This document shows, piece after piece, positions 6,114-62,708 of a stretch of 64,000 nt of DNA. Made by a program: the position numbers and the translations under genes. Below the pieces are notes generated by a model. The model searched no databases. It was not told the origin of the DNA and saw nothing but the letters and a program-made list of their open reading frames with translations. The stretch is from Yuukianura sp. NJ FZ-2021 (lineage: Eukaryota): positions 1,860,001-1,924,000 of the forward strand of contig CM102286.1 of NCBI GenBank assembly GCA_046563655.1, given 5' to 3'. Numbering within the stretch: position 1 is the stretch's first letter; every line of letters starts with the position of its first letter.

Positions 6114-6619
6114 CCGGATCTACGGACCCCTTAAGGGTCAAACTTTCAATACCTACAAATTCAATTGGCCTTTTAGCGCCAAGTGACCACGTCCCGTCAA
6201 AAAGCGGTCATCAGGGTAGGGCACTTATTCGAAGTGGTCCGTTGACCTTGTTGACCCTTACATGAGATAGCTGTGTTGACAGCCAACGTTTGGTACATAA
6301 GAGACGGATGAACTCAACCATGTGATAATCCGCTCGCATTAATTACAAGAAATGACAGTGTTCGTTCTTAGACAAGCTGAAAGCTACGTCACTTAACGTT
6401 CATACTTTGGCTTCTAATTATTTTAAATCTATGTATAAGCAAGGTTTTCATTTCTTTCTCTTGACTCACATGTTTAAGTTAATGCAGTTGTATCCCGGGG
6501 TGTACAAACGTAGCCGATGTACTATGGTTATACTGTGTTATAGTTGTGAGAACGATAAAAAAAAGTTGGCCTTCGATCCGGAAGGAGGTCACTTGGGGGT
6601 CACACGATGCACATAAAAG

Positions 6620-6880
6620 TGGTTTGTCTCAATGAGATGAATAACTTTTTCGAGGTAATTTTCCATGTTACCGAGAATAAAACACGTTGACCTTGACCTT
6701 TACCCCGGTTGACCCACCGGGATGATATTCAATAGCAACCTCCCCCCCCCCCCACCCGATCACCCGGTGTTCACTAGTGGGAACAGATCCCGGAAATGTT
6801 TAACTGTTTCCGAGATAATTGCCGCTGCAGCCAGACGGACGGCCGGCCAGACAGACAATTACATTCTATAAAGATTAGAA
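6620..6880 (+). mobile_element. Helitron/DINE-1-like non-autonomous element remnant
   Basis: Poly-C tract, tttccgagat followed by a cagacggacggccggccagacagac microsatellite and a tataaagat end, a layout typical of arthropod DINE-1/Helitron-type repeats. Boundaries are approximate. Confidence 0.35.
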
Positions 6881-6922
6881 CTTAATCGCTTAATCGCTAC
6901 TTAATAAATATGAATTCGGTTT

Positions 6923-8285
6923 TCAATGGCATATTTCGGCTGCGACACCACAATCTCCGTTTGGCTGTGCCAAAAAAATAAGTCCATCTTCGCAACTGCA
7001 GAGCTGGTACACTATAGCTTGTGTCTTCGGAATTTGTGTTCCAAATGTAGCCTGAAGACTCCCTCCAGCTTTTGGAACTTTTGCGGTAATCGGATTCGTT
7101 GTTTCCACTTTGGGTAGTTCAATCGCTTCTGCCTCAAGTATGATCTGTGCGAAAGAATGTCGAAATTCAAAAATAGTGTGAAATAAAATAAGATTTTCAA
7201 TGGAAGTTATTTGTGGTTTAGAAACTTGTTGGCGGGAAACTTACCGCACCACTTTTTGACTGCAACGTGAGGTCATTCAAGGTCGTGACGCAGATTTCTC
7301 CGGCCAACGAGGTTAGGTTCATACCAGTACCACCATGCACTTTTACGAAACTGGATACTGCTTCCAGTCTGTTTTCAACATTTTTTTATTCTTCGATTTT
7401 TAAAATGATTTTAAAAAAAACTTTAAGAGCAATATTTTTCACCTAAGTGGTTCTCCAGGATTTGTTTTGATGGTTGAAGTTTGGAGTGACTCTTGGAGTC
7501 CAGCAGTTCCTTGACCTTTAAAAAAACCAGCAAAATATGATCATTGAAAACAATTTTAATAATTTTCAAATTTTTCCAAATTTTAAACTTAACTGTTTAC
7601 TTGAAGCGATTCCAGACCAGACACAAGTTCTTTGTGGTCTCCCAAAAACAGAACGTGCCCATCATCTCTTTGAATTCTGAATGAAGCGACGCTCATATCC
7701 AAAACGTCGCCATCTTGAAATAAAACATTGCGTCAAAACCCAAAAATACTTTTAAAACAAAATTTCAACTTTGTTCAGCCTTGCTTCCCAAAATTTTTAA
7801 ATATTTCGAACCTATACGTAGACTATTCTCAACGTCGACCGCCTCCGAGGACTTTGAGGTCAAACTGATGTTGCCACCGCCGTTGATTTGAATTCCGTGA
7901 TTATATTCTGTTTGAACTTTTGAAATAGTAAGGTTGTCTAAAACCAAAGCGTTTCCATTTAAAATGACTCCACGTGGATGAACTTGGAGAGCTCCTAGTC
8001 CATCCTGCAAAGCGAAGATTCAAATGCAAAGACTAAAAATTAAAACACATAACTTTGTCTGTTTCTTTAAAGTTATCTTACTGATGAAATTTGGAGCACT
8101 TTGATAATCCAAAGTGTAAGGGCAAGGTTCAAGATGACAACGAACGTTAGCAACGTGACTACACAGAACAAGCATCGTCTTCTCCAACCGTAGAGTCCAA
8201 CACTATCTCCAGTTGAGTACAAAGTGATAAACTGTTTCTTCGTGTCTTCTGATGTCAACCAGTCACTTCCAGAATTGGTCGCCAT
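6923..8285 (-). CDS. Scgdelta: Sarcoglycan, delta/zeta/gamma type (6 exons)
   Basis: VGLYGWRRRCLF plus TM helix (ILNLALTLWIIKVL), DGLGALQV, SLQTSTIKTNPGEPLRLE, and C-terminal cysteine cluster VYQLCSCEDGLIFLA..C...C. GT-AG introns join the frames. Confidence 0.9.
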
Positions 8286-9003
8286 TTTGGCTCTTTTCAA
8301 ATTTCGATTTCTCTTCAAAACGAATATCGCCTCTTAAACGGCTGAACTTTCACACACAATATTTTCGATATTGTGTTCAAAATACTTATGCAAAACTTGA
8401 AATTACTTAAAAGCAGAGGAAAAAAACAAACCAGTACAAGTATTTGCGTGAGATTTTCTTTTGGCACAAATAAGCACAGTGTTGAGTGATGCGAAAAGAA
8501 CCTGCTTAGATATAATATTTTCCTATTCTAATTCTAACATCCTGCGGTTGAAATTCTATTTTAAAACTTATGTGTTCAATATCCTCACAACATGTTCATT
8601 TTTTTAAACAAAACTTTTGCATCTCTACTCTGGATGTACCAACCGGAAGCTCTCAAAAAAATTTCAATTCGAGCATTCAATTCTTTCGGAAGAGAAATGG
8701 ATGAGATGCTTTGCAACTTCAAATTTTAGTAGTGGAAATTGCAGTTTACAAAAAAAATTGAAAATACCGAATAAAATACAAAATGAAAATTTTAGTTTTT
8801 CTTCACTAAAAAATATAAAAGACGGAGCTTCATTTGTTATCAGAATTGAGAGGAATGACCTCAGTTGACCTAAATTGACGCATGTTATGGTTAATCTAAA
8901 CCCAAAAGTAAATAAAATCACTTCACTTGATGGGTTTCTGTGTTCACAATTTGTTACAATCTGAGTTTAGTTTGAAAACAACGCAACTTCTGTAAAATTG
9001 TTG

Positions 9004-10314
9004 ATGTCAGAAATTCTGGAAAAAATGCCCGGTTGTGAAAAGTGTTTTCCAGAAATAATTGATATTCGGAAAAAGACTGAAGAAAAGGACTTTTTCGTTG
9101 AGAGTGTTGAAAAATTGATTCTGGAGGGACTGAATAAGCCAAGAGGTCACCAAAAGACTGTTCCTAGCGTCATTCTGTGGGATAAGAAGGGCATTGACCT
9201 TTTCAATAATCATGTGACCTATGTGGAAGAATACTATGTAAGTCATGATGAAACTGAGACGCTACAGATACATTCAGCAGACATTGCCCAACACATTCCA
9301 AACAACGCCATCATCATCGAGCTAGGTGCAGGGTAAGTACTAACCTTCGTCTCGCTTAATTTTTAATTTTTCTCAGACTTTTCATGAAATCTGAGAAATT
9401 GAAGTTTTTGGTCGTTTAAGGTCTATGCTCAAAACACAAATTTTGTTGGACGCTGTGGACAAAAAGTGTCAAAATGTGACTTACTACGCTCTGGATTTGG
9501 TACAGAACGAACTGGAACTGGTAAGCATCAATTCAAAAAATGGTGGATCTAGTTATGCATTTAATTAATAAATTAATATAATAATTACATTAATTAATTT
9601 ATTCATTCATTATTAATTAAAGGTAATTAAAGTCTAAAGTCAAAAAGAAAAGTGAAACGATGAACATCCGCTTTACTATGTTAATTTTAGTCGCTGTCGA
9701 GACTCAAAAAGTATAAGAACGTGACTACCGCTGGACTTTGTGGGAGTTATGAAAATGGCCGGGAATTTTTGAAATCTTTGCCGCCAAATCGTCCTAAAAT
9801 TATTTTATGGATTGGAGCCTCCATTGGAAATTCAACAAAACAGGAAGCAACTAATTTCTTGAAAAGTTATAACTCATGCTTGAACGTCGGAGACAGTTGG
9901 ATTATCGGAATTGATCGTCGGAATGACCCCAACACAATTCTGTTAGCATATGATGACCCAGCAGGAATCCAAGCCAAGTTTTGTCTCAATGGTCTTGTCA
10001 ACGCCAATTCAATTTTGGGAAATCCGAAATTTTTTGATTTGTCAAAATTTGAGTACTACATTCGGTATAATGAAGAGCAAGGAAGAGTGGAATCGTTTTT
10101 CAAGTGTTTAGTAGAACATGACTTGTGTCATGTCACAAAAGAAGGAACTGAAGTGATCATTGGTCTTCAAAAAAACGAACTTGTAAATTTCACTTTTGCA
10201 CAAAAATATTCTCTAGATGAAACAGAACAACTTTTCAAAAATGTCAACTTGAAACAGGTTGGTCGCTGGACAAATTCCATGGAGCGTTATGACATTCATA
10301 TGGGCCAGAAATAA
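9004..10314 (+). CDS. egtD: EgtD/EasF-family (Methyltransf_33) SAM-dependent amino-acid N-methyltransferase, 350 aa; exons 9004-9332, 9421-9520, 9691-10314
   Basis: Motifs KTVPSVILWDKKGIDLF, EEYYVS..E, IIELGAGS..KT, YYALDL, GASIGN, IIGID, AYDDPAG..AKF.LNGL and QKYS. Two GT-AG introns give a continuous 351-codon frame. Confidence 0.88.
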
Positions 10315-10456
10315 CGTAATATTAGAAATTTCAAATTAACAAATTTCAAATTGCGAGATGTTAATTTTAAGTAGCTACGAAACTTTTGTAATTTAGATTC
10401 AGAAGAGCTTGAAATTGTGACTTACAAATAAGAACTCGAAATTTTTTTTGTGTTAT

Positions 10457-11722
10457 CTAAAAAGTGATGATTAATTTGACCAAAATTTTGCCGACGACGT
10501 TTTTGAGTATTGATGGAAAAGATTTGCGTTGGATATAGTAGGAGTTGCCCATTTTCCAGCGTAGTGGAGGACACGACCTTCGAAATTGTGGACTCAGCAA
10601 GTGACGGTGACATTTCGGAAATTTGGCTGAAAATGTTGCCATGTCTGACCATATTTCCATGAAGTAGAAGTAGACCATGAATATTGTAGTGGCCGTAATG
10701 ACTATGAGTGAGTGTAAAAAGAGCATTCCATTGTGAGGCAATTTGAGAAGGGAGTAACTAGCTAAAATCAAAATAGACATTGACATAATTTGGAGCACTG
10801 GAACGACAGTTGAGGTGATCTGGACAACTTCTCCATGGAGTAATTGCAGGCAGCGATAGAACAGTTCCGAGTCCAACACCGAAGTAGTTTTTTCGAGACG
10901 GACACTACAGAGAAAAAATTTTGAGTCGACTTTTCAAAAAACAAACATTTTTTTTTAAAGTATGGATTATGTTTTTCTCACTTTATGTTTCTGATTTTCA
11001 GCCAGTTGTTTAAGCACTTGTTTGTGACAATTGACAGTCCACAAAACAAAGTCGCGTGGTCCCAGACAATCCAAGCGGAAGTGGAAAGTACAACTACGAA
11101 CAAATCTTGATTAAAGTGACAAAAATTCAACGTCAAACGGAAATTTTCCATCAAAATCCAATTTGCGTCAAAGAAAATTCGAAGTCCAGGTAAGAATGCA
11201 AATGGTGAACAGAAGAAACTGATTGCCAGCGTCATCAGTATCGCTTCATTTCCGTCTTTCTCGAGCTGCTTTTCATTAAATTTGTTTCCTAAACAAACAA
11301 ACTGATTTAAAAAAAGCTCAAAATGTGTTAGGTAGTTTGGTGAACTTACTAAAAAGTTCATTGAACTCCAGAACATTGTTGATAAATTTAGCACTCTTTT
11401 CGATTTGAGTCAAGAGAAAGTGTGCTATTGCAGACGCGTGAATGGTGCCGCAGAGGAACATGAAGGTGATGAGTACTTGTTCAACTGGAGGGTTGGTAAC
11501 AGCACAAATTACGAGTAAATTGAGGATTGTTGCAATAGCAACTGTCCATCCAGCATATAAAACAACTTTCCAGATAGGTACTGGGAAGTACTTGCAAGTA
11601 CTGCTCGACACTTGGATTTCAACTGGACTCTTTTTGGAATCAATATACAGCGGAATTAAATCAAAGGAGTATTTTCGATTGAGCAGAAATTTCAAAATTT
11701 GAAACGTTTTGACTGAAATCAT
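10457..11722 (-). CDS. Seven-TM GR/OR-superfamily-like receptor, copy 1 (375 aa); exons 11722-11350, 11288-10982, 10904-10457
   Basis: GT-AG splicing gives an open frame with six long hydrophobic helices plus C-terminal RRSCPPLRWKMGNSYYIQRKSFPSILKNVVGKILVKLIITF. Confidence 0.8.
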
Positions 11723-12171
11723 AGTTTTGAATCCGAATTTTCAAAACAATACAAGTTGTTCTGCACAACAGCAATGACGATTGTGAATGTGATTGTAGAT
11801 TGTTCGTTGTTGAAGACAAAAGTTCCTCCCAAATTTTCAATTAAGTTTGAATTATTTCGTTTATTTTTTCTCGTTTTTAAAATCGAGCTCGATAAGAACA
11901 ACCGAGGATTTATGAAATTTTGAGTGGAAAAAGTCTTTTAGGATCATTAGAACGTAGAGGAGTTTAGTTCAGAGGAATTTTTTATTTCTAAAACCATAAA
12001 AATTTAACGAAACTCGCTTGAACATAACAACCAAAGTTTTTCAGTTTCGAAGCATTTTGTAAAGTTATGAATGCCAAGCAAAATCCATGAATTAAACATC
12101 AACCATTCAAGCGATTAGTCGTCAGTTTACGATTTGCGAAGCACATATCGTTCTCATGGAATGTATTTAAT

Positions 12172-35832: not shown

Positions 35833-38800
35833 TTAAAGAAGACGTCCACGACACTCCGGTGTTCCGCAGTAACAGTACATGGTTTTTCCGGAAACACTTC
35901 CAATGTCATAGTTGTAGTCCCAGGTTAGCTCAGTTCCAGCACGGATGTGTTTGAAAGCAAAGAATGCTACCCAGGGGAATCGGAGATCATGAGTATCCAC
36001 AAACACGTTTTGAACAAAAACGTTTGGTTGACAGGAGTGCTAAGCAGAATAAAAAATGTCAATAAGAAACTAAATTCCAGTTTTGAATTGAAAGGTAGCA
36101 ATAAATATTAGTTACATTCAAGTATCGTCCAATATTTCCAGAACTCTTGGCATCCATGATATAGCAATATTCGTCTCCTCCGAACAGCGGACGCATTGAT
36201 TTCTTCTTTTCCTTATCCTCGGTGTTTCTTGTCGATCCTAAAACAAAAATTCAACGGATGTTTACAAAAGTCAATTACCTTTCAAACTTTAGCAGCAGCT
36301 AAAATAATTACAAAACAAAAGTGAGGAAACTAAACATAATCATGGCCAGTGCACAACCCACGCCTAACTATACTTAGCAATCGGGTATTAGCAAAGGTAA
36401 ATCAGCAGGGCTTTAACACACATCTTAACATTAGCACACAGCAATGTCAACCAGACTGACAGGTTCCAGTGTCTCACCTTCATCCGTGCGCTTAGCACCA
36501 CGGAGTGAGTAGGACCTTACTCCGCTACTGTTTACAACACAATCCGCTGTGTAATCCTTGTCGTCTTCGTCAACAAGTTCGCCCGAATCTTAGATAAATC
36601 ATTATGCACTTGAGTTTCTACTTAGAAACTAGTTTTTTTTAACTACTACTCTACTGCCACCGTTCTACTAAAACCCATAGTCTAACTAACCTTGTCCACT
36701 TCGTCGTCGTTGACGCACTCCTGTTTCCGGATCAACCACGTCACTTTCGAATCCTTCTTTGTAAGATTCACAGACTTCAATATAGTCAAGTTCAGCCAAA
36801 TACTCGTCACCAAATGCTTTCCCGTCCTAAAAGGTCGTGTTAGTTAGTAATTCATCGTCAATATTTTTAGTAATCAGCTGATATATTAAGTACCTCATTG
36901 GCACCGTGCTCTGTGAGGAGTTGTCCAGCATAGACGCAAATGAATGCTCCTTGTGGTATGTCGTGAATCGGACGAATGGCCCAGCCCTTGTTGGAAGTTT
37001 TAAAAATCTGAAGTTGCCACTTCATGTCAAACTGAACTACTCGATTCAGGCAGGTTTTCTTACAAGGACACCTAAAAAGTCATGAAAAAAGAGTTTGCAA
37101 GTACTACATGTATAAGGACAATTGGACGTTTTACAGAATGTTAAACTATACCTTCTATTACACTCATAGATGCCAGTGACTAGGTGCTCTGAGAGTCGTC
37201 GATACTGGTATCCAACTTCCAGGTTAAGCTCTTCAGATCTTCTATCTTTCACACCTTCCATCGTCATCTTCCAACAGGCGCACTTTTCCTTATCCTAAAG
37301 TCAACAAAAAATACCATTTTGATACATATCGATTCACTAGGCGTTATAACTTCTTACCGAACAGTCGTCAGTACAGTCACAGCAGCTAAGAAACTCAGGA
37401 TCCAAATTCATGTGAACGTCGGCTGCCGGTTGTCTGTCTTTCGAATACTCAACATACTCAGGATATTCATGGTCAACCGAGTTACAGCATTGAACTGGAA
37501 CATTCTCCTTTCCATATGTGATGTCCTACACCAGCACCAATCAGAATTTTGTCACATAAGAAACAAACACAATCATAAAACCTGTCAAATTCTTACGCTG
37601 ATGATGAAATGATTCGAAGATGGAACGAATTCGTTGAAACAGTCAACAGCATAGTCGTAACAGAAATGATCAATCCCCATGTTGTACTTCGTCAAAGTCA
37701 GGAAATCGTGCATCTCTTCAAGGTCTCTGAGCCGTCGGCCGCATGGCGCTCGATAGTAAATTGAGCGACGCGGATTTTTTGCTACTTCCCTGAAAATCAA
37801 AACATAACAGTCAGTTTAAACTAAAACATAAAAGCCATCTTTGGAAATAGACGTTTTACCTGTTGAAGCCATAGAACATCGGAAGTGTAAGTGGATTGAT
37901 CATTTTGACGTCTTTGTCATTCTCCTTGTAAGGCCGGACACAACTTGGTTTACAAGCGTGTGGTACGAACGGCAGTGGTCCCTCCACCGATTTCGGAATG
38001 TTTATACGCTAAAAACAGAAAACATTGAAAAACTGTCACTTTTTTCAATTTTTTTCTTTTTTGAGTATTTTTTCAAAAGCTTCTCACAGTCATTCTCCCT
38101 TCATATTCCAACAATCCAGTTGAACTTGTGATTCCAGGCGGTTTTTTGGCGACATTGGATAACGGATTGACAGTTCCAGGCTTCCACTGTTGTGTTCCAG
38201 CAGGCAATGCAGTTGACTTCCTTGCAGTTTGAACTAAAAGGAACAAAATGAGATAAGCTGTTTGACTAATGAATAACCGGATTAGACAATCAATATTAAC
38301 TTGAACGTACCAAGCTTACTTGTACTAGTAGACGGTGAAGGTGTTGATGAACTGTAGTTGACATATTCAATCTTGGCTTCATTCTACAATAAAGTAAATC
38401 AAAAAACTATTTTGATGGCAGTTTTAGCTCAACTGTCAACAAATGTCACCGCGATAATGTCCTTACCGAGTGCGATGCAGCATGAATGTCGTGCCGCCTC
38501 GGAGCTCGTGAAGGCTTACTAACAACCTTGTTGTCCTTGTCAGTTCCTAAACGAGCTTCTGCTCGTTTCTGTTTGTTGTATAACGGTGCAAGCCGCTGTG
38601 ATCCACGATAAATCCACTCGTACCGATTATCCGCCTCGAAGAATATTTTCACCAGAGAACAATCCACGTCAACCACTCTTCCAATCCACCAATTTCCTAG
38701 ACCAAACATAGCCAAAGTTTTAACAAAGTTAAACTTTTAGCAGCGGAAATAAATTCAATTTAGATCATGTTCTAACCATTCCATTCAGTTGACACAATTG

Positions 38801-40475
38801 TGCCTTTGGCCAGTCTGACCATTGGACGTTCTGGATAAACCTTGAGGTATTCTTTGATGAAGGCCTGACTCGAAGGATGGACGTCGTTCCAAACGTCTTT
38901 AGACGATTCGCAAACCCAGAGAACGTTTTCAATTGAGACGTATTGGGCATAACCGTCATCAAAGAAGATGAGGTATCTAAATAAATGTGGAGGTCGAAGG
39001 TTAAAAATCAAATTCTGAAACGTACACAGAAGACTAAAGTACACAAACCTGTTCTGATTATGAGGAATTGGGCGCTCAGCGACAATTCCAGCATAGAACT
39101 CACTGCCTCCTGCTTTGTTCTCCTTCAACTCGTCATTGAATCGTGCAATAATCCTGGCTCCAACAGGAAGCAGAAAAGGAGTCTTCAAAGAAAACGCCAA
39201 ATGCCTTGCACTAAACACTCGAACTTCTTTGGAAGTTTTGCCCCGTCCAGAACTCTCAAGTTGAACGTGGAATTCCTGTAGAAAACATTTTTTAAAGGAA
39301 ATGCTGGATTGAACAAGAGAGTAAATGGATTTACTTGAGTATTGGTTTGGCGGTTGCGATCAATTTTGATAACTGTTCCGAGAGCCCAACTGTTCAACGC
39401 AGAACCTCTCATGGCGTAAACTTTTTTGTGAACAGCAGGAATCATTCTTGGCAAAACTCTTGGAGTTGGAGCCACAGTGAATTTAGTTTGGTCGCCGAAA
39501 ATAGTTTCTCCTGGCTTCACTACTCCGATCTAAACATAAAACATCCAGCAATTAGTTCTCAGAGAGCAGTAGATTAGTATAAACAAGAAGTTAATGGTGT
39601 GTCGACTTACTGCGGCCACTTCATCATCATCATCACCAGCCATTGTGAAATCTTCGACATCCTGCATGCCCTCGCCTTCTGTATGGCACAATTGCTTCTG
39701 CGATGTCCCTGGTTCGTCTTTAACCAGCGGCGTTCCGTTGACGTTAACCTCATCCGGAGGGTCTTCCATGTCTTTCTTATTACCAAGAATTTTTCGTACC
39801 GCACCATCAGCGTCTATTTCGACAGTCTTGAAAACAACATTCTAAAAACAAAAAGAACAAGATTTCAGATAAAGTTGAGATAAGCCAAAGCCAACGTTGT
39901 TTCATTTACACGGTACTATTTTTCTTTGGTTAGTAGAGGAACGTACCTGATGAGGTTTGAGGCACACGTTATTATATAATTTGACGTTCCGTTCGACTTC
40001 GTCAAGCATTGGCTCCATCATTTTGCTTGCCTTCTGGACTCCTTGAGCTACAAGATTAAGACGAAGATAGTTTAATAACACAAAGTTCCCTTGTATAACG
40101 CTGAGTTATAAATGGATAAACATACACGCTTCGGCAAGCCGTTCTTCCATGCGACGAATTCTCTCAAGTGCCGATACTGCTCCACCAAGTTGAGCTGCCA
40201 TTAATTCCACCGATTCACGGTCTGTTGCGGGCAAAAAATCTGGCGGAGGTATAAACGGAAACAACTTGGCCATTTCCTCTATTATTTCCAGTTCTGTGGG
40301 TACCAAGGACTCGTCAACTTCTAGAAAGCAAACATTAAATCCATTTAGCTTCCAGTACTATACCGTTTTGAGAAGAAACTGTTCAAAAAGTATGAAGCTT
40401 ACCCATGTCATTGTTGTCAGCGCAGTATACCCTAGAAAACATCGACCGATCTTCCTTTTCGCTACGAATGTCCAT
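35833..40475 (-). CDS. SETDB1: Histone-lysine N-methyltransferase SETDB1/eggless (multi-exon; start codon approximate)
   Basis: Tudor domains ([22 protein letters not shown]), MBD ([12 protein letters not shown]), pre-SET cysteines, bifurcated SET ([30 protein letters not shown]) and post-[16 protein letters not shown]. Confidence 0.95.
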
Positions 40476-41407: not shown

Positions 41408-43827
41408 ATGGCATTTGCAATTTCCCATTTTTCTTGGACTGGACCGTTACGGAGATCTCAACGTGAAATGTCAGCCTGGAAAATTTTACGTGATGTTCCG
41501 CTTGCTAAGCGGGGCTCGTCATTGTCATGCTTGTCAAGAAGTTATTCAGCATCAACGGGCCTACAACGCAGTATTTCAGTCTCCGACTCAGAGAATCAAG
41601 CCGGAAATAACCAAACAGATGTGACAAGTCATGACATCATAATTGCTGGCGGTGGATTAATCGGAACAATTTTAGCAGTTGCACTAGGTAAGTTCTTAAA
41701 TAACATATGCTATTTGTTTTTTTACCATAAAATTCAATGAGTTGGGACTTGGCAGGGATTTAGGATTTAATAGTTAAACCTTACTCTTGCTTCACTCAGG
41801 AAGCACCAAACGTTTGGAGAACAAAAGTATTCTACTGCTGGAAACGTCGAACAAGGTCTTCAAGAAGGAACCGCCGACTGGTGATACCGACAAGAGCACA
41901 GCCGTGGATTTTAGTAACCGCGTTTTCGCTATTTCTCCTGGTTCTAAAAAAGTGCTTCAAAAGTTTGGAATTTGGGATCACATTTGGAGGTTACAGGAAG
42001 TAAAATCGTTACAGGTAACTTCTGAATTAACTGCAGCAGTAGTTGTATCCTACAACTTGTGCGCCTGTGCGGTGCATGCGTTTTAGTAACTTGTGTTTTC
42101 AGGTATGGGATGCTTTGTCGGACGCAAGTATCACCTTCAACAATCCGGACTTACAATCACCAGTGGCTTATATCATTGAAAATCCCGTTCTCAATTATGC
42201 TGTTGGCAAAGCACTGGAAGAGGTTTGGCTTCTTTTATAACGGCTAAAGTCCATTTACAGAACGAAAAAATGAATTTCAATTGCATCAGGCATTGGTTTT
42301 GCAATTTTCAGTGCGACGGAAATGTACAGGTTGAGTACGGGTCATTCGTCGATAAATGTAAGATCCCAGCAGCTTCTGAAGAACATAACACGCTGGCGAA
42401 AGTAGATCTCAAAGATGGACGAAGCTACACAACGGATCTAATTGTAAGTCTGAAACAGCTTCATCGTTATATGAAGTGCGCTGATAACTTTTAACGTTAC
42501 TTCAGATTGGGGCTGACGGTTATGGTTCCAGGGTCCGATCTGCCATAAACTCCAACTATATTTCATTCAACTACGATCGTACTGCAGTTGTTGCTACGCT
42601 GAAATTGACTGAGGTAACTCGGATGTCGCTCATAAATTACAAAGTATTTTCCACTTTCTAACTTCAATGTGGTACCTTTCACACCTCGCAGGCAACTGAA
42701 AATAACGTCGCATGGCAACGATTTTTGCCCAGTGGCGGACCAATTGCAATACTTCCTGTACGTTTGCCATTTATTTTAAACATGACAGATTAGGCAATGA
42801 GCAAATCACGAGTAACTAAGTTTTTTGTTTCAGTTGTCTCCAAATTATAGTTCGCTGGTGTGGAGCACTACTCCAGAAAAGGCGAAAGATCTCATCGACA
42901 TGTCGCCCGAATCGTTTGTAGATGCAATTAATTCTTCTCTTGTAAGAAGTTTACCTTTTAATTGCAATTTACCGTAGTTCTAACAATTTGTATTGTATTT
43001 TTTCCTAAGTGGCAGAGCTATGGCCGATCGTTTCTGGTGGAGAAATCATGTGAAATTTTATCCAGTATTAAGTTGTCCACCAAAGGACCAAAACTCCTGC
43101 CGCCATCGATATCAGAAGTAGTTGATGGTTCCAGAGCAACTTTTCCACTTGGATTTGGTCACTCTTCGTACTATGTCAACAGACGCTCAGCCCTCATTGG
43201 GTGTGTTTCGCCATGAGTTCTTTTCTACAAAGAGTTTTTGGAAAACTCTTTGTAGTTTTTTTTTTTGAAAAGTTGAATAATTTTGAATTTTGGGTGATTC
43301 AGTGACGCGGCTCATCGGATTCATCCACTGGCTGGACAGGGATTGAATTTGGGCATTGGTGATATTGAATGCTTACAAAGAGTAATCGACAAAAGTGTTG
43401 GATTGGGGAATGATTACGGTGAGTACTCTAACATTACGCATTACGAAGCATGGGAATTGCCCACATTTTTGTTCTAAAATTCTACTCATATTTTAATTCA
43501 TTGTCCATATAGGGCTACTGTCCGCCCTCCATGACTACGAAACTGAACGACAAAGACACAATTTAGCCATCCAGTCCGGAGTTGACTTTCTGCATCGTCT
43601 TTACAGCTTCGATTTTGCCCCGGTTGTCGCATTCAGAACGTTAGGTCTCTCTTTTGTCAATTCATCCGACATGCTCAAGGTAACACAAACGTTTATCAAA
43701 CGTTTATATAAAGATCAATGAATTTATGAACTTTTTTTTGTCTAATCCGTGATGTACCTTTTTCATGAATTGAAAGACTGTTTTTTGTTTCTTATAGAAA
43801 TTCATCATTTCTCAAGCCGCTGCTTGA
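41408..43827 (+). CDS. COQ6: Ubiquinone biosynthesis monooxygenase COQ6, mitochondrial (multi-exon)
   Basis: Basic N-terminal presequence; motifs [53 protein letters not shown] and [23 protein letters not shown]. Confidence 0.95.
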
Positions 43828-45467: not shown

Positions 45468-48400
45468 ATGAGTGAGACAAAGAAGTCTTTGAGTTGCGTA
45501 AAAAGTGGTTACGCTGTAGTAGGAAAGTTGTTTACAAATTTTGGAGCTCTAATTTTAGTAGTAGTGACCACTTTGGCCATCATTTTAACTTGGATTGGTC
45601 TTGCGCAAAATGGATTTCCGGAATTTGGTGACCCATATTTGGTACGTTCCAAATTTTGAAAAAAAAAATTCAAAAGTATTTTAATTTGGGTGCTAAATGT
45701 GTGTTTTATTTTTGGTTTTTAGGGATTTCAGACTCGATTTACTCCAATTTCAAATCGGTTGGTGACACTGGACAATTTAAGACTTGAGCTTAATCGCATG
45801 AACGTTTTGGAAAATTATCCAGGAGAGAGAACTGGAGAAAAAGAGTCAAGAAGAAGAAGAAGAAGACATTTTGGATCTAGCAGTAGCATGTGTGCCAATT
45901 CGCCATGTAAGTTTGTTACATGTAGACAAATTTCAAAATTTTGAATCCTAAATTTCGAATTTTCGAACTTTTTTATTTCAAATTTTAGTGGAAGATTATG
46001 GCCGTGTGGCGCTGGAGCTGAAAGGTTTCGCTTCCAAATCAGTGCTGAGCAAAGAGACGCTTTCGTTAATTTGCTACTTTCAGGAACTAATTGCGTCCAT
46101 TCTGACCTACGATTTGGTTTGTGAGTATGACGAGAATCGAAGGTGCTGTCCAATGTGGTCGCTCCCAAACTATGTCGCTCAACATTCAAATAAGTCCGAC
46201 TGTGCCAATCTAATCGTAAGACAATTTTCAACAAAAAATTGTGATTTTCTTTTCAGTTTGTCAAGTTTTTACTGATTCTGTTTTTGTTTAGGACGAAGAT
46301 GTTGAAAGATTTAAAGATGGTCTCCGTTTTTGCAATAATTTGTACTTGAATTTAACACAACATGAAGACTGCCTCAATCGCCAAAGTAGTTGTCCAACAA
46401 TGTGCCATTATGGAAACATCCTTCAAGCAGCCATGTCCCACACAGTTGATGCTGCCTTAGTCCACAAAAATGTAATTCGTCTTTAAGATTAATCAATTAC
46501 TTTTTTGGAATTTCCATTCTTGATACTTGATACTGATGCTTGTGTTTTTTAGGCTAGCCAATTTGCAATGATTGTAGTGCCAGTTCCGAAATCTTCAAGG
46601 GAAGAATGGAGAATGAAAATTTTTCAAAAAGAAATCTGGAACTTGCGCAAATTTCTTCCACCGGAAATTGCAACATTGGCAGGCTACGATTTCGGTAAGC
46701 AGAATTTTAGTACACTTGGATATAAAATTAATAAGAAAACAAACTTTTTTTTAAATTATTATTTTCCATATTTTAGGTGGGAAAAATGTAATTTTTGAAA
46801 GCTACTTGGTGTCTGACCTCCAGTATGTCGCTCTGGCCTCTGTGATAATTTTCTGCATAGTCTTCATCTTTACCAAATCTGTCTTTGTGACTGTGATATC
46901 CTTCGGAAATCTGATTCTGTCTCTCGGAATTTCGTATTACCTCTACAAAAGCGTCTTTCTCATTCCATATTTTCCATTTATGAATATGTTAGTGACCATC
47001 ATCATTCTCGGTAAGTTTACTTCAATTTGAAAATATATATTATATTTTTACACAAACACATTTAAAAATCATGAAGTAGCGAAAGCTATTTTGTAATCTT
47101 ATTCATGTCTCTCTGTCTGTTTGTCTGTCTGTGTTTTAGCGCAATTCTCTCGGTTTAGTCTGCACATGTTCACCATTTTTTGTTTTCCAGGAATTGGAAC
47201 AGACGCGACGCTTATAGTGAGTTCTGCTTGGGAGCGAGCTGACGCATGCGCGGGTGACCGTCGTGGACGAATTAGAAGAGAATTTGTCATGACAGAAACG
47301 TTGAAGGAAACGACGGTTACTTTAGTCATTACAACGTGTACCACTGCTGGTGCTTTTTTCGCGTCTCTCATGAGTTCCATTACCACAATTCGCTGTTTTA
47401 GGTAAGCAAATACCCAAAATTGAAGTATTTTTTCAAAATTCTGAGTTAGTAAAAGTATTGTTTCTCTTTTTTTTAGCATTTACGCCGGAACTGCTATTAT
47501 CACCAGTTTCACTCTCCTGTACATCAGCGTTCCAATCAGCATCGACTGCAGTACTCGGTTCTGGAAGTACTTCACTGGACTCTTTCCACTCACTTCCCAA
47601 AGCAAGTTATTCGCCAAAGTCATCTCATTGCTAAGATTTCCCGAGATCTGTTCAACTTCGTTCAAATCTTCAAAAGTTTTCGTCAAGTTATCTTCATCTG
47701 TCCTGATCTGGACATGCTCGTTTCTAATCTGCACAACTATTCTACTTATCTCCGTTTTCGTGGTTTTCGGCTCACCGGGTCTACAGTTACCAGACAGTGA
47801 ACAGTTCCAGCTACTGTCAGCATCTCATCCAGTAGAAGTATTTGATCGTATCGTCAAACCAGCTTTTGGTGACGGTGTGGCTGATTTCGCAGAAGAAAAG
47901 GTGACAGTATACTTGATTTGGGGTTTGCAGCCAAAAGATACTGGAAATGCTTTGGATCCGTCAAACCCCGGGAAGTTGCAATTCGATCCAACATTTTCCC
48001 TTGACTCAGCACATGCGCAAAGATGGATGAGGAAACTTTGTAAAAGAATTCAGAGACTAAGATTCTATGATCAAATTGAAAATGATCGAGTTGGGCTCAA
48101 CTTGGACTCTTGTTTCATGGACACTTTAGTGACTTGGATGAAGCGTGACTGCCAGCATTATGCTGGCGGTCAACAATCTTACAAACCTTGTTGCAATACT
48201 TCCAAGTTTCCTTATATTAATTCAACTCTTCATCACTGTATTGGACTCGCTGCGAGAGATGTCTACAGAACTCCATCAATCTACTTTCATCCTGATGTCG
48301 CCGGTCCAAAGTTTTTCGTCAATCGGAGATCAAGTGACCTGCGCAAGGAATTGGCCACTTTCAGTGTAAGAATTCGCACAAACATTACTTATTCGGTGGT

Positions 48401-49277
48401 TTATGACAAGATGGACAAAAATTACCAAGAACTGGAAGCAAATTTTCAAGAAATTTTGAAAGATGCTCCACCGGGACTCCAAAATGGATTCTTCGTGTCT
48501 TCGCATTTCGATTTTTACGATCTTCAAAAAAGTTTGACCGGAGATACATGCGGGTCGATGCTTCTGTCTGTTGGACTTTGCTTCCTGTTCATCCTAATTT
48601 CAAGCCGCAGTGTTACGGTTGCCACTGGCGCAGCAATTTGCATCTTTGCTATTGGTAAGCTCTAAAAAAAGTACTGCCAAATATTCAACAATTCAAACAA
48701 TTCTTATGCTAAAGTTTTTTTTGTAGTTTTAGTTACCTCTGCCGCTATGATCAAATTTTTCAACTGGAAACTCGGCGTTTTCGAATCCATCGCTGCCACA
48801 GTTGCCGTTGGCCTCTCAGATTTCACTGCTCACCATGCAATTGAATTTGCCAAACAAAAGTCTGTTGCCAACATGACCACACCAACATTTTTCTCAGCCG
48901 TGTCCACCGTGGTCATGGGTCTCTGCATGTACTTGTTCTCTTCAGTGCTCGTCTATGAACAAATTGGATCCTTCTTCTTCGTCCTCGTCGTCACCAGTTG
49001 GACATACTCCGTGTTCTTCCTAACTCCAATCCTCATGCTTTTCAATAACTTGACACAAGTTGCTATGACAACCGTTACCAAGGTGTTTCCATACTTCACC
49101 AAATCCAAAACCCAACAAGCATGTGCTGCCGATGATGACGAAGATGCTCGTTCACACTCTGACTTGATCATGGAAAATATTGCCGAAATAGAAAAATCTC
49201 AAGAAAAACGACCAACTAAAGCCATGATGGATACTTGGAAACAACTCAAAAAATTTGGTCAAGAAACGCCAGTCTGA
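45468..49277 (+). CDS. disp: Protein dispatched-like (RND/sterol-sensing domain Hedgehog exporter; multi-exon, start approximate)
   Basis: FGDPYLGFQTRFTPISNR, polybasic furin-like site RRRRRH, CCPMWSLPNYVA, YFPFMN, TTCTTAGAFFAS..S.ITTIRCF, LQLPDSEQFQL...HPVE.FD, WGLQPKDTGNALDP and WKLGVFES. Confidence 0.9.

Positions 49278-50543: not shown

Positions 50544-62708
<12,165 letters not shown>

Follow-up and report, generated by a model that had tools for sequence, protein, structure and literature searches.

The DNA studied here is a stretch of 64 kb from contig CM102286.1 (the window in the following), and positions 9004-10314 of its plus strand contain a gene for a protein of the Methyltransf_33 family, the family of EgtD, of the N-terminal domain of Egt1 and of EasF. 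The original prediction, which had been made from the sequence alone, described it as an intron-bearing gene in an animal genome that was probably acquired by horizontal transfer. The gene consists of three exons and two introns, which have the following positions and characteristics (GC is the fraction of guanine plus cytosine, SAM is S-adenosylmethionine):

9004-9332, plus strand: exon 1 of the methyltransferase gene, codons 1-110, with a phase-2 end, recognized with PF10017 and tblastn
9333-9420, plus strand: intron 1, 88 nt, GTAAGT..AG, GC 0.31, inferred from the sequence and from colinearity with homologues
9421-9520, plus strand: exon 2, 100 nt, with the remainder of the SAM-binding loop and the acidic Y-Y-A-L-D-L strand
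9521-9690, plus strand: intron 2, 170 nt, GTAAGC..AG, GC 0.21, with AT-rich palindromic runs
9691-10314, plus strand: exon 3, 207 codons plus TAA, with the equivalents of G161, N166, Y206, T213, M252, E282 and S284 of EgtD

Exon 1 contains the fungal-type N-terminal I-x-D-I-R motif, the equivalents of Y39, F47 and Y56, and the start of the E-L-G-x-G SAM motif. The start codon at 9004 is the first ATG past an in-frame stop located before 8971, and the stop codon TAA (10312-10314) directly follows the methyltransferase domain. Both introns are required for an open frame, because unspliced read-through of exon 1 leads to a TAA at 9334-9336, and read-through of exon 2 likewise runs into a stop. 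The introns are predicted to be spliceosomal, with canonical splice sites, and the spliced coding sequence (CDS) of 1053 nt encodes 350 amino acids (aa) plus the stop, without any internal stop. The window was also searched by tblastn with five fused Egt1-type fungal proteins as queries, and all five were colinear with the three exons and free of gaps. In the case of the Linnemannia protein (P0005), residues 137-212, 213-243 and 246-452 fell on exons 1, 2 and 3 in this order; the identity of exon 2 to residues 213-243 of this protein and to the equivalent residues of the others was 50-56%. Matches of the same five queries outside the methyltransferase had expectation values (E) of at least 2.8, and thus no sulfoxide-synthase part was detected in the 64-kb window. 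Neither a sulfoxide synthase nor a C-S lyase was present among the open reading frames (ORFs) of the window that were scanned with Pfam.

The family assignment was based on profile searches. PF10017 (Methyltransf_33) matched exon 1 with an E of 1.6e-15 (positions 3-71 of the 304 profile positions) and exon 3 with an E of 2.7e-43 (positions 108-302), while exon 2 with its 34 aa had no Pfam match on its own and profile positions 72-107 were filled by the tblastn colinearity. The spliced protein could be aligned with homologues over 319-338 aa, with E values from 1e-97 to 1e-105. For the subfamily, TIGR03439 (EasF family) yielded 78.1 bits with exon 1 and 142.2 bits with exon 3, which adds up to roughly 220 bits (the cut-off is 205.55), the exons being scored apart and exon 2 being unscored. 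The scores of TIGR03438 (the bacterial EgtD equivalog) were lower, i.e., 45.9 and 109.4 bits, with a sum of about 155 against a cut-off of 290.9; it ranked below TIGR03439 for both large exons, and the ranking is clear. Seven eukaryote-type homologues, with and without fusion, all passed TIGR03439 and failed TIGR03438, and one bacterial EgtD behaved in the opposite way. Therefore, TIGR03439 is a marker of the whole fungal-type branch and not of EasF activity. Judged by these profiles, the window protein is a member of the fungal-type branch (EasF/Egt1-N, TIGR03439) and not a bacterial EgtD. The original prediction had claimed a Methyltransf_33 protein of fungal-type sequence, encoded in an intact frame of 350 aa with two AT-rich introns and standing alone, without an EgtB-type part in the window, and in all of these respects it proved to be right.

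To characterize the active site, EgtD residue numbers were transferred to the family alignment after aligning solved EgtD chains with a bacterial EgtD homologue and with the Linnemannia protein. The comparison set comprised 99 homologue rows that were aligned over at least 250 residues and stemmed from 169 BLAST matches. According to PMC8593015, Tyr206, Ser284 and Tyr56 of EgtD hold the histidine carboxylate, Asn166 holds the alpha-amino group, Thr213 positions a water molecule that holds the imidazole, Tyr39 makes contact with the alpha-carbon, and Glu282 is another important residue of the site. Asn166 and Gly161 are described as critical for successive methylations in PMC9103826. The SAM-binding loop E-L-G-x-G is present in the window protein, including the loop glycine that is found in 97 of the 99 rows, and the acidic strand Y-Y-A-L-D-L was seen after strand 2 in the alignment blocks. 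Furthermore, the equivalents of Phe47, Gly161, Tyr56 (98 of the 99 rows), Asn166 (97 rows) and Tyr206 (all 99 rows) were kept. In contrast, four residues that contact histidine in EgtD were replaced, i.e., Tyr39 by Trp (Tyr in 94/99 rows), Thr213 by Gln (Thr in 82/99), Glu282 by Thr (Glu in 84/99) and Ser284 by Ala (Ser in 94/99). Numbered along the window protein, the new residues are Trp59, Gln237, Thr311 and Ala313. Not one of the other rows (0 of 99) departed at all four positions. Met252 was replaced by Ser, a residue that is common at this position in the fungal type (24/99). The trio of Tyr, Glu and Ser was kept in 36 of the 42 rows of at least 600 aa and in 41 of the 57 shorter rows.

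The window protein is thus predicted to be an active-looking SAM-dependent alpha-N-methyltransferase of class I with a rebuilt side-chain pocket. Because of the replacement of Tyr39, Thr213, Glu282 and Ser284 by Trp, Gln, Thr and Ala, we infer a changed specificity, and the substrate would be an amino acid or a related amine, with histidine used poorly or not at all. Relatives with an altered Glu282 act on tryptophan, tyrosine or dimethylallyltryptophan, for which a literature search yielded no confirmation. As the window protein has no sulfoxide-synthase domain, it would not make ergothioneine alone, and with four altered histidine-contacting positions the link to ergothioneine that had been implied from the sequence turned out to be weak.

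The nearest relatives were sought with several approaches. With exon 3 as the query, an exhaustive HMMER search retrieved 3035 proteins at E <= 0.001, 27 of which were found at E <= 1e-30, and the best match was a Linnemannia protein of 931 aa with 47% identity. Only four matches, all of them distant, came from a word-indexed protein search that was limited to exon 3. Looking up the top 30 matches revealed 18 proteins from fungi, two from ulvophyte green algae (one of them from a transcriptome) and 10 without a name, and no animal was among the 20 named ones. The fungi were mostly chytrids, zygomycete-grade lineages and Glomeromycota. Pfam scans of 26 top matches showed that 14 contained DinB_2 and/or FGE-sulfatase domains, as is typical for the Egt1 type, and 12 consisted of the methyltransferase only. 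The fused Egt1 proteins of Linnemannia and Mortierella had 44-46% identity over 319 aa, followed by Entrophospora with 39%. A stand-alone protein of Gamsiella, found in a later profile search, had 45.0% identity over 338 aa, and the stand-alone protein of Mortierella claussenii had 41.6%. As a possible donor group, the Mortierellaceae are therefore the best lead, by identity only, with no difference in closeness between their fused and their stand-alone forms.

In the later profile search, the best 120 of 443 matches at E <= 1e-10 were examined. They included three animal proteins, all from sciarid fungus gnats (Bradysia coprophila, Bradysia odoriphaga and Pseudolycoriella hygida). The claim that the family is restricted to bacteria and fungi is incomplete, as these flies carry annotated stand-alone members. 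No springtail protein was found among the best 120 of the 443 profile matches or among the 20 named proteins of the top 30, and the proteomes of Folsomia and Orchesella are contained in the database. Each of the collected homologues was nearer to another match than to the window protein, and the set collected at that stage contained no close orthologue. A metagenome scan for relatives led to 121 pattern matches, none of which was confirmed.

Phylogenetic trees were calculated with sets of different sizes. For the tree with 92 rows, eight near-duplicate rows were omitted and four bacterial-type rows from the word-indexed search were added. It was split into 33 bacterial-type and 59 eukaryote-type rows with 100% support in the Shimodaira-Hasegawa-like approximate likelihood ratio test (SH-aLRT), and the window protein was found in the eukaryote-type group. 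In a tree with 65 rows the sciarid proteins joined an unnamed fused protein of 895 aa (P0100) with 99% support, and the window protein was placed elsewhere. When the window protein was constrained to form a single clade with all three sciarid proteins, the log-likelihood fell by 41.7 units, and this arrangement was rejected by the approximately unbiased (AU) test (p=0.0016). Horizontal transfer from a fungus is the best reading of these sequence comparisons. It is favoured because 18 of the 20 named top matches are fungal, because no springtail is among the matches, and because a single clade with the sciarids is rejected. Two unrelated hexapod lineages have different branches of a mostly fungal family and no member was seen for the annotated springtails in the database, so that independent transfers fit far better than vertical descent.

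The gene is directly flanked by the following features:

6923-8333, minus strand: sarcoglycan gene, four exon-like ORFs that match PF04790 in colinear order
8334-9003, no strand: spacer of 670 bp, AT-rich, GC 0.31, between the divergent sarcoglycan and methyltransferase genes
10457-11740, minus strand: first unit of a tandem array of an arthropod-restricted gene family, convergent with the methyltransferase gene, about 140 bp from the stop codon to the end of the ORF

The methyltransferase gene thus occupies a 2.1-kb gap between two host genes, and the 670-bp spacer is presumed to be a shared, putative promoter region. Five DNA runs from two studies contain the stretch. One contig, which is 4,484 bases long and stems from a run of what is likely the source sample, spans 6500-10529 and includes the sarcoglycan gene, the spacer and the entire methyltransferase gene. 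It has 119 letter differences and 48 gap positions to the window over about 4 kb, with two or more variants at many sites, which points to high heterozygosity or to pooled individuals. The second study has a different organism label and yielded contigs over 6904-8349, 8360-9539 and 10081-10487 with about 95% identity; the contig over 8360-9539 contains the spacer, exon 1, intron 1 and exon 2, and that over 10081-10487 the 3' end of the gene. The GC of the CDS is 0.389 and that at third codon positions (GC3) is 0.391, while the GC3 of host exon-like ORFs ranges from 0.28 to 0.48. Convincing flanking repeats or target-site duplications were not found around the methyltransferase gene. Because of the bridging contig, the contigs of the second study and the host-like composition, contamination or a chimeric join is unlikely, and the gene is physically linked to host genes. 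The animal neighbours that had been proposed, together with the argument that the flanks speak against contamination, were thereby corroborated: the sarcoglycan gene (PF04790) lies upstream, and the window contains a SETDB1 gene that matches springtails best.

The copies were also compared for signs of selection. Fifteen of the listed differences between copies are situated in the CDS, and eight of these are synonymous, while 79% non-synonymous differences would be expected by chance (binomial P=0.0055). Five of the seven replacements are located in codons 26-36, ahead of the conserved domain. These counts lend weak support to a constraint on the host-resident copy.

The window contains a real, intact, host-resident arthropod gene of the fungal Methyltransf_33 type, and we regard it as moderately probable that this gene was obtained by horizontal transfer, has evolved fast, and encodes an N-methyltransferase for an amino acid other than histidine. 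In such a course of events, a gene of the fungal-type family (Egt1 N-terminal domain/EasF) would have been acquired from a fungus, and after the transfer it would have adopted the base composition of the host, would have carried two spliceosomal introns and would have evolved fast. The SAM loop is kept, the pair Gly161/Asn166 would allow repeated methylation of the alpha-amino group, and Tyr56 and Tyr206 would hold the alpha-carboxylate, with a methylated amino acid or a betaine as the predicted product.

Several points weigh against this reading. The placement of the window protein within the mostly fungal group had no support and shifted between trees, and its branch is long (1.12 compared with a median of 0.69 in the 92-row tree, 0.83 compared with 0.46 in the 65-row tree). 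When, in a set of 64 rows, the 55 eukaryote-type rows were forced into a clade without the window protein, the cost was as small as 0.87 log-likelihood units (AU p=0.49), and because of this value nesting inside the fungi is not shown by the tree. The group of window protein and sciarid proteins in the AU test was chosen after the tree had been seen, and organism names are known for only part of the matches. The synonymous excess stems from 15 sites among 40 listed of 753 differences, and sites of a single haplotype are non-independent. Last, the long branch and the four changed conserved residues could also mean relaxed constraint and not a new function.

This last point leads to the first alternative, i.e., that the transferred gene is under relaxed constraint, has lost its useful activity and retains an open frame that is heading to decay. 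The long terminal branch, the loss of four otherwise conserved substrate-contacting residues and the lack of a close orthologue among the homologues then collected, each of which is nearer to another match, would fit to such a fate. It is rather unlikely, however, in view of the frame of 350 codons, which is intact over three exons with canonical splice sites, and of the retention of the residues for SAM binding and for the alpha-amino and carboxylate groups. In addition, a second organism, with another label, has a copy that is about 5% different, and synonymous changes are overrepresented among the CDS differences that were listed.

A further alternative is that the protein is still a hercynine synthase, i.e., a histidine trimethylase, and that either ergothioneine is produced with the aid of an unlinked sulfoxide synthase of the OvoA or EgtB type and a C-S lyase, or hercynine itself is useful. 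Histidine methylation is the best-known activity of the family, the equivalents of Gly161, Asn166, Tyr56, Tyr206 and Phe47 are retained, and the sciarid homologues have the full histidine pocket, so that such enzymes persist in hexapods; moreover, OvoA transcripts are reported for some arthropods in PMC9103826. The alteration of Tyr39, Thr213, Glu282 and Ser284 together is unique among the 99 rows, though, and Tyr, Glu and Ser are kept by all fused Egt1-type proteins that were inspected singly, as well as by most long rows (36/42 of at least 600 aa). With no sulfoxide-synthase sequence in the 64-kb window, we judge a hercynine synthase to be quite unlikely, and the preference remains with a methyltransferase of changed specificity.

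It is very improbable that the gene is ancient, descended vertically from an ancestor shared by animals and fungi and was lost in nearly all other animals. The AU test allows a place outside all sampled eukaryote-type sequences (p=0.49), but no springtail and no animal other than the sciarids was found among the matches, with the Folsomia and Orchesella proteomes in the database. In addition, a clade with the sciarids, the only other animal members found, was rejected (AU p=0.0016), the sciarid genes nest with the fused 895-aa protein with 99% support, and one would have to assume two old paralogues and a very large number of losses.

Fungal contamination or a chimeric assembly join is hardly credible: short introns occur in fungal genes, too, and fungal DNA is present in the guts of soil arthropods, but a single contig extends from the sarcoglycan gene over the spacer and contains the methyltransferase gene in full, contigs of the second study hold the same upstream flank with exons 1 and 2 as well as the 3' end of the gene, GC and GC3 agree with the host exons, and the gene is lodged in a 2.1-kb gap between host genes.

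A comparison with known systems was performed next to the tree analyses. The Mortierellaceae have fused proteins of the Egt1 type (e.g., KAF9272712.1 of Linnemannia elongata, 931 aa) and stand-alone proteins (Gamsiella multidivaricata, 371 aa; Mortierella claussenii, 348 aa). The window protein shares with them the highest identity found, the TIGR03439 subfamily, the I-x-D-I-R motif and the SAM loop. It differs from the fused forms in that their DinB_2 and FGE-sulfatase domains are missing, and from the Mortierellaceae proteins in general in that these have Tyr39, Thr213, Glu282 and Ser284 where the window protein has Trp, Gln, Thr and Ala. The Mortierellaceae were not joined to it with support in the maximum-likelihood tree. 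As a side observation, the stand-alone Mortierellaceae paralogues (P0298 and P0299) have a Ser at the position of Asn166, and judged by this residue they may stop at fewer methyl groups.

The mycobacterial EgtD (PDB entries 4pim, 4uy5-4uy7 and 7scf; TIGR03438) belongs to the same Pfam family, and its structures are the only solved relatives that were found (E of about 3e-15 with exon 3). Common to both are the SAM loop and the equivalents of Gly161, Asn166, Tyr56, Tyr206 and Phe47, whereas the two proteins are located on different sides of the bacterial/eukaryote split with its 100% support and differ in four histidine-contacting residues. EasF, the namesake of TIGR03439, is the dimethylallyltryptophan N-methyltransferase of ergot alkaloid clusters. 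Like EasF, the window protein is a stand-alone Methyltransf_33 protein of the fungal type, and as in EasF-labelled homologues the position of Glu282 is not occupied by Glu (the Galerina protein has Ala). Unlike EasF, the window protein is altered at Tyr39, Thr213 and Ser284 as well. Prenyltransferases or other families of ergot clusters were not present among the ORFs of the window that were scanned with Pfam.

The sciarid proteins (P0304, P0305 and P0327) are annotated as 'ergothioneine biosynthesis protein 1-like', so that these members are already named in the database, and they have lengths of 401 aa in B. coprophila and 400 aa in B. odoriphaga, while that of P. hygida is partial. They resemble the window protein in being stand-alone fungal-type Methyltransf_33 proteins in hexapod genomes, with about 40-41% identity to it. 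They differ in that their histidine pocket is complete, and because the joint clade was rejected (AU p=0.0016), their origin is separate. The sciarid gene looks like the result of a transfer of its own, and it could give the flies hercynine synthesis. Literature on sciarid proteins of the ergothioneine type was not found among the papers examined, and more may exist.

The transfer of foreign metabolic genes into a location among host genes is the same phenomenon that is known from the springtails Folsomia candida, Orchesella cincta and Holacanthella duospinosa, in which genes of both fungal and bacterial origin were acquired. For the transfer candidates of Holacanthella, the commonest BLAST matches were the zygomycetes Conidiobolus and Basidiobolus, as stated in PMC5644144. 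The Methyltransf_33 family was not found in the supplementary files of PMC5490193, PMC5644144 and PMC4987106 (of the last, all files except one), and no literature that names the family in arthropods was found; a compendium of metazoan horizontal transfers (PMC13342648) may list it. The gene of the window adds one family to the well-documented transfer of fungal genes into springtails.

A broader idea, which we consider doubtful, is that fungus-associated hexapods captured a fungal methyltransferase repeatedly, i.e., in the sciarids with the pocket left intact and in a springtail-like lineage with the pocket rebuilt, and that this springtail-like animal makes an amino-acid betaine of its own, or ergothioneine with the aid of an unlinked sulfoxide synthase. 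If true, a betaine would be made that no animal is known to synthesise, or ergothioneine would be made against the textbook view, namely that animals cannot produce it. The host-resident copy in a soil arthropod and the separate capture by fungus gnats turn this into a testable question, i.e., whether any of the fungus-associated hexapods synthesise these compounds on their own. According to PMC7653990, animals are considered to obtain ergothioneine and related betaines of amino acids from the diet. The rebuilt pocket is also a natural experiment on how enzymes of this family change their substrate choice.

Outside of the region around the methyltransferase gene and its direct neighbours, the window contains the following features:

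1-975: exon of FAM161, assigned by Pfam
35836-39359, minus strand: SETDB1/eggless, with SET, Pre-SET, MBD, Tudor_4 and Tudor_5 exons in order
43298-43474, plus strand: a weak and short match to FAD_binding_3 (E 6e-5)
47097-49277, plus strand: Patched-SSD exon, followed by ORFs of 406 aa and 203 aa without a Pfam family
54229-54815, minus strand: two protein-kinase exons, assigned by Pfam

The Tudor exon of SETDB1 had its best match in Folsomia candida (48% identity, E 3.6e-36), followed by Orchesella (43%) and then by other arthropods. By these matches the host is an arthropod and most likely a springtail or a near relative, with a modest margin over other arthropods.

The tandem array on the minus strand extends from about 10457 to about 33400 and, as read from the ORF list, is composed of some twelve units, which are about 1.7-1.9 kb in size and have two or three long exon-like ORFs apiece. 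No Pfam family was assigned to the array proteins, even at E values up to 10. In a protein atlas they resembled arthropod-only clusters of hypothetical proteins with a score of 0.97; gustatory-receptor clusters scored lower (0.88) and are no more than a lead. Contig joints that step back by 1641-1684 bases fit with the tandem unit. On the other side of the methyltransferase gene, just past the 3' end of the sarcoglycan gene, the region 6500-6900 had a summed contig depth that exceeded the depth of adjacent sequence 10-50 times, and this was seen in each of the four runs. Many loose contig ends enter GACA-type simple repeats there, and the region is probably a high-copy mobile element.

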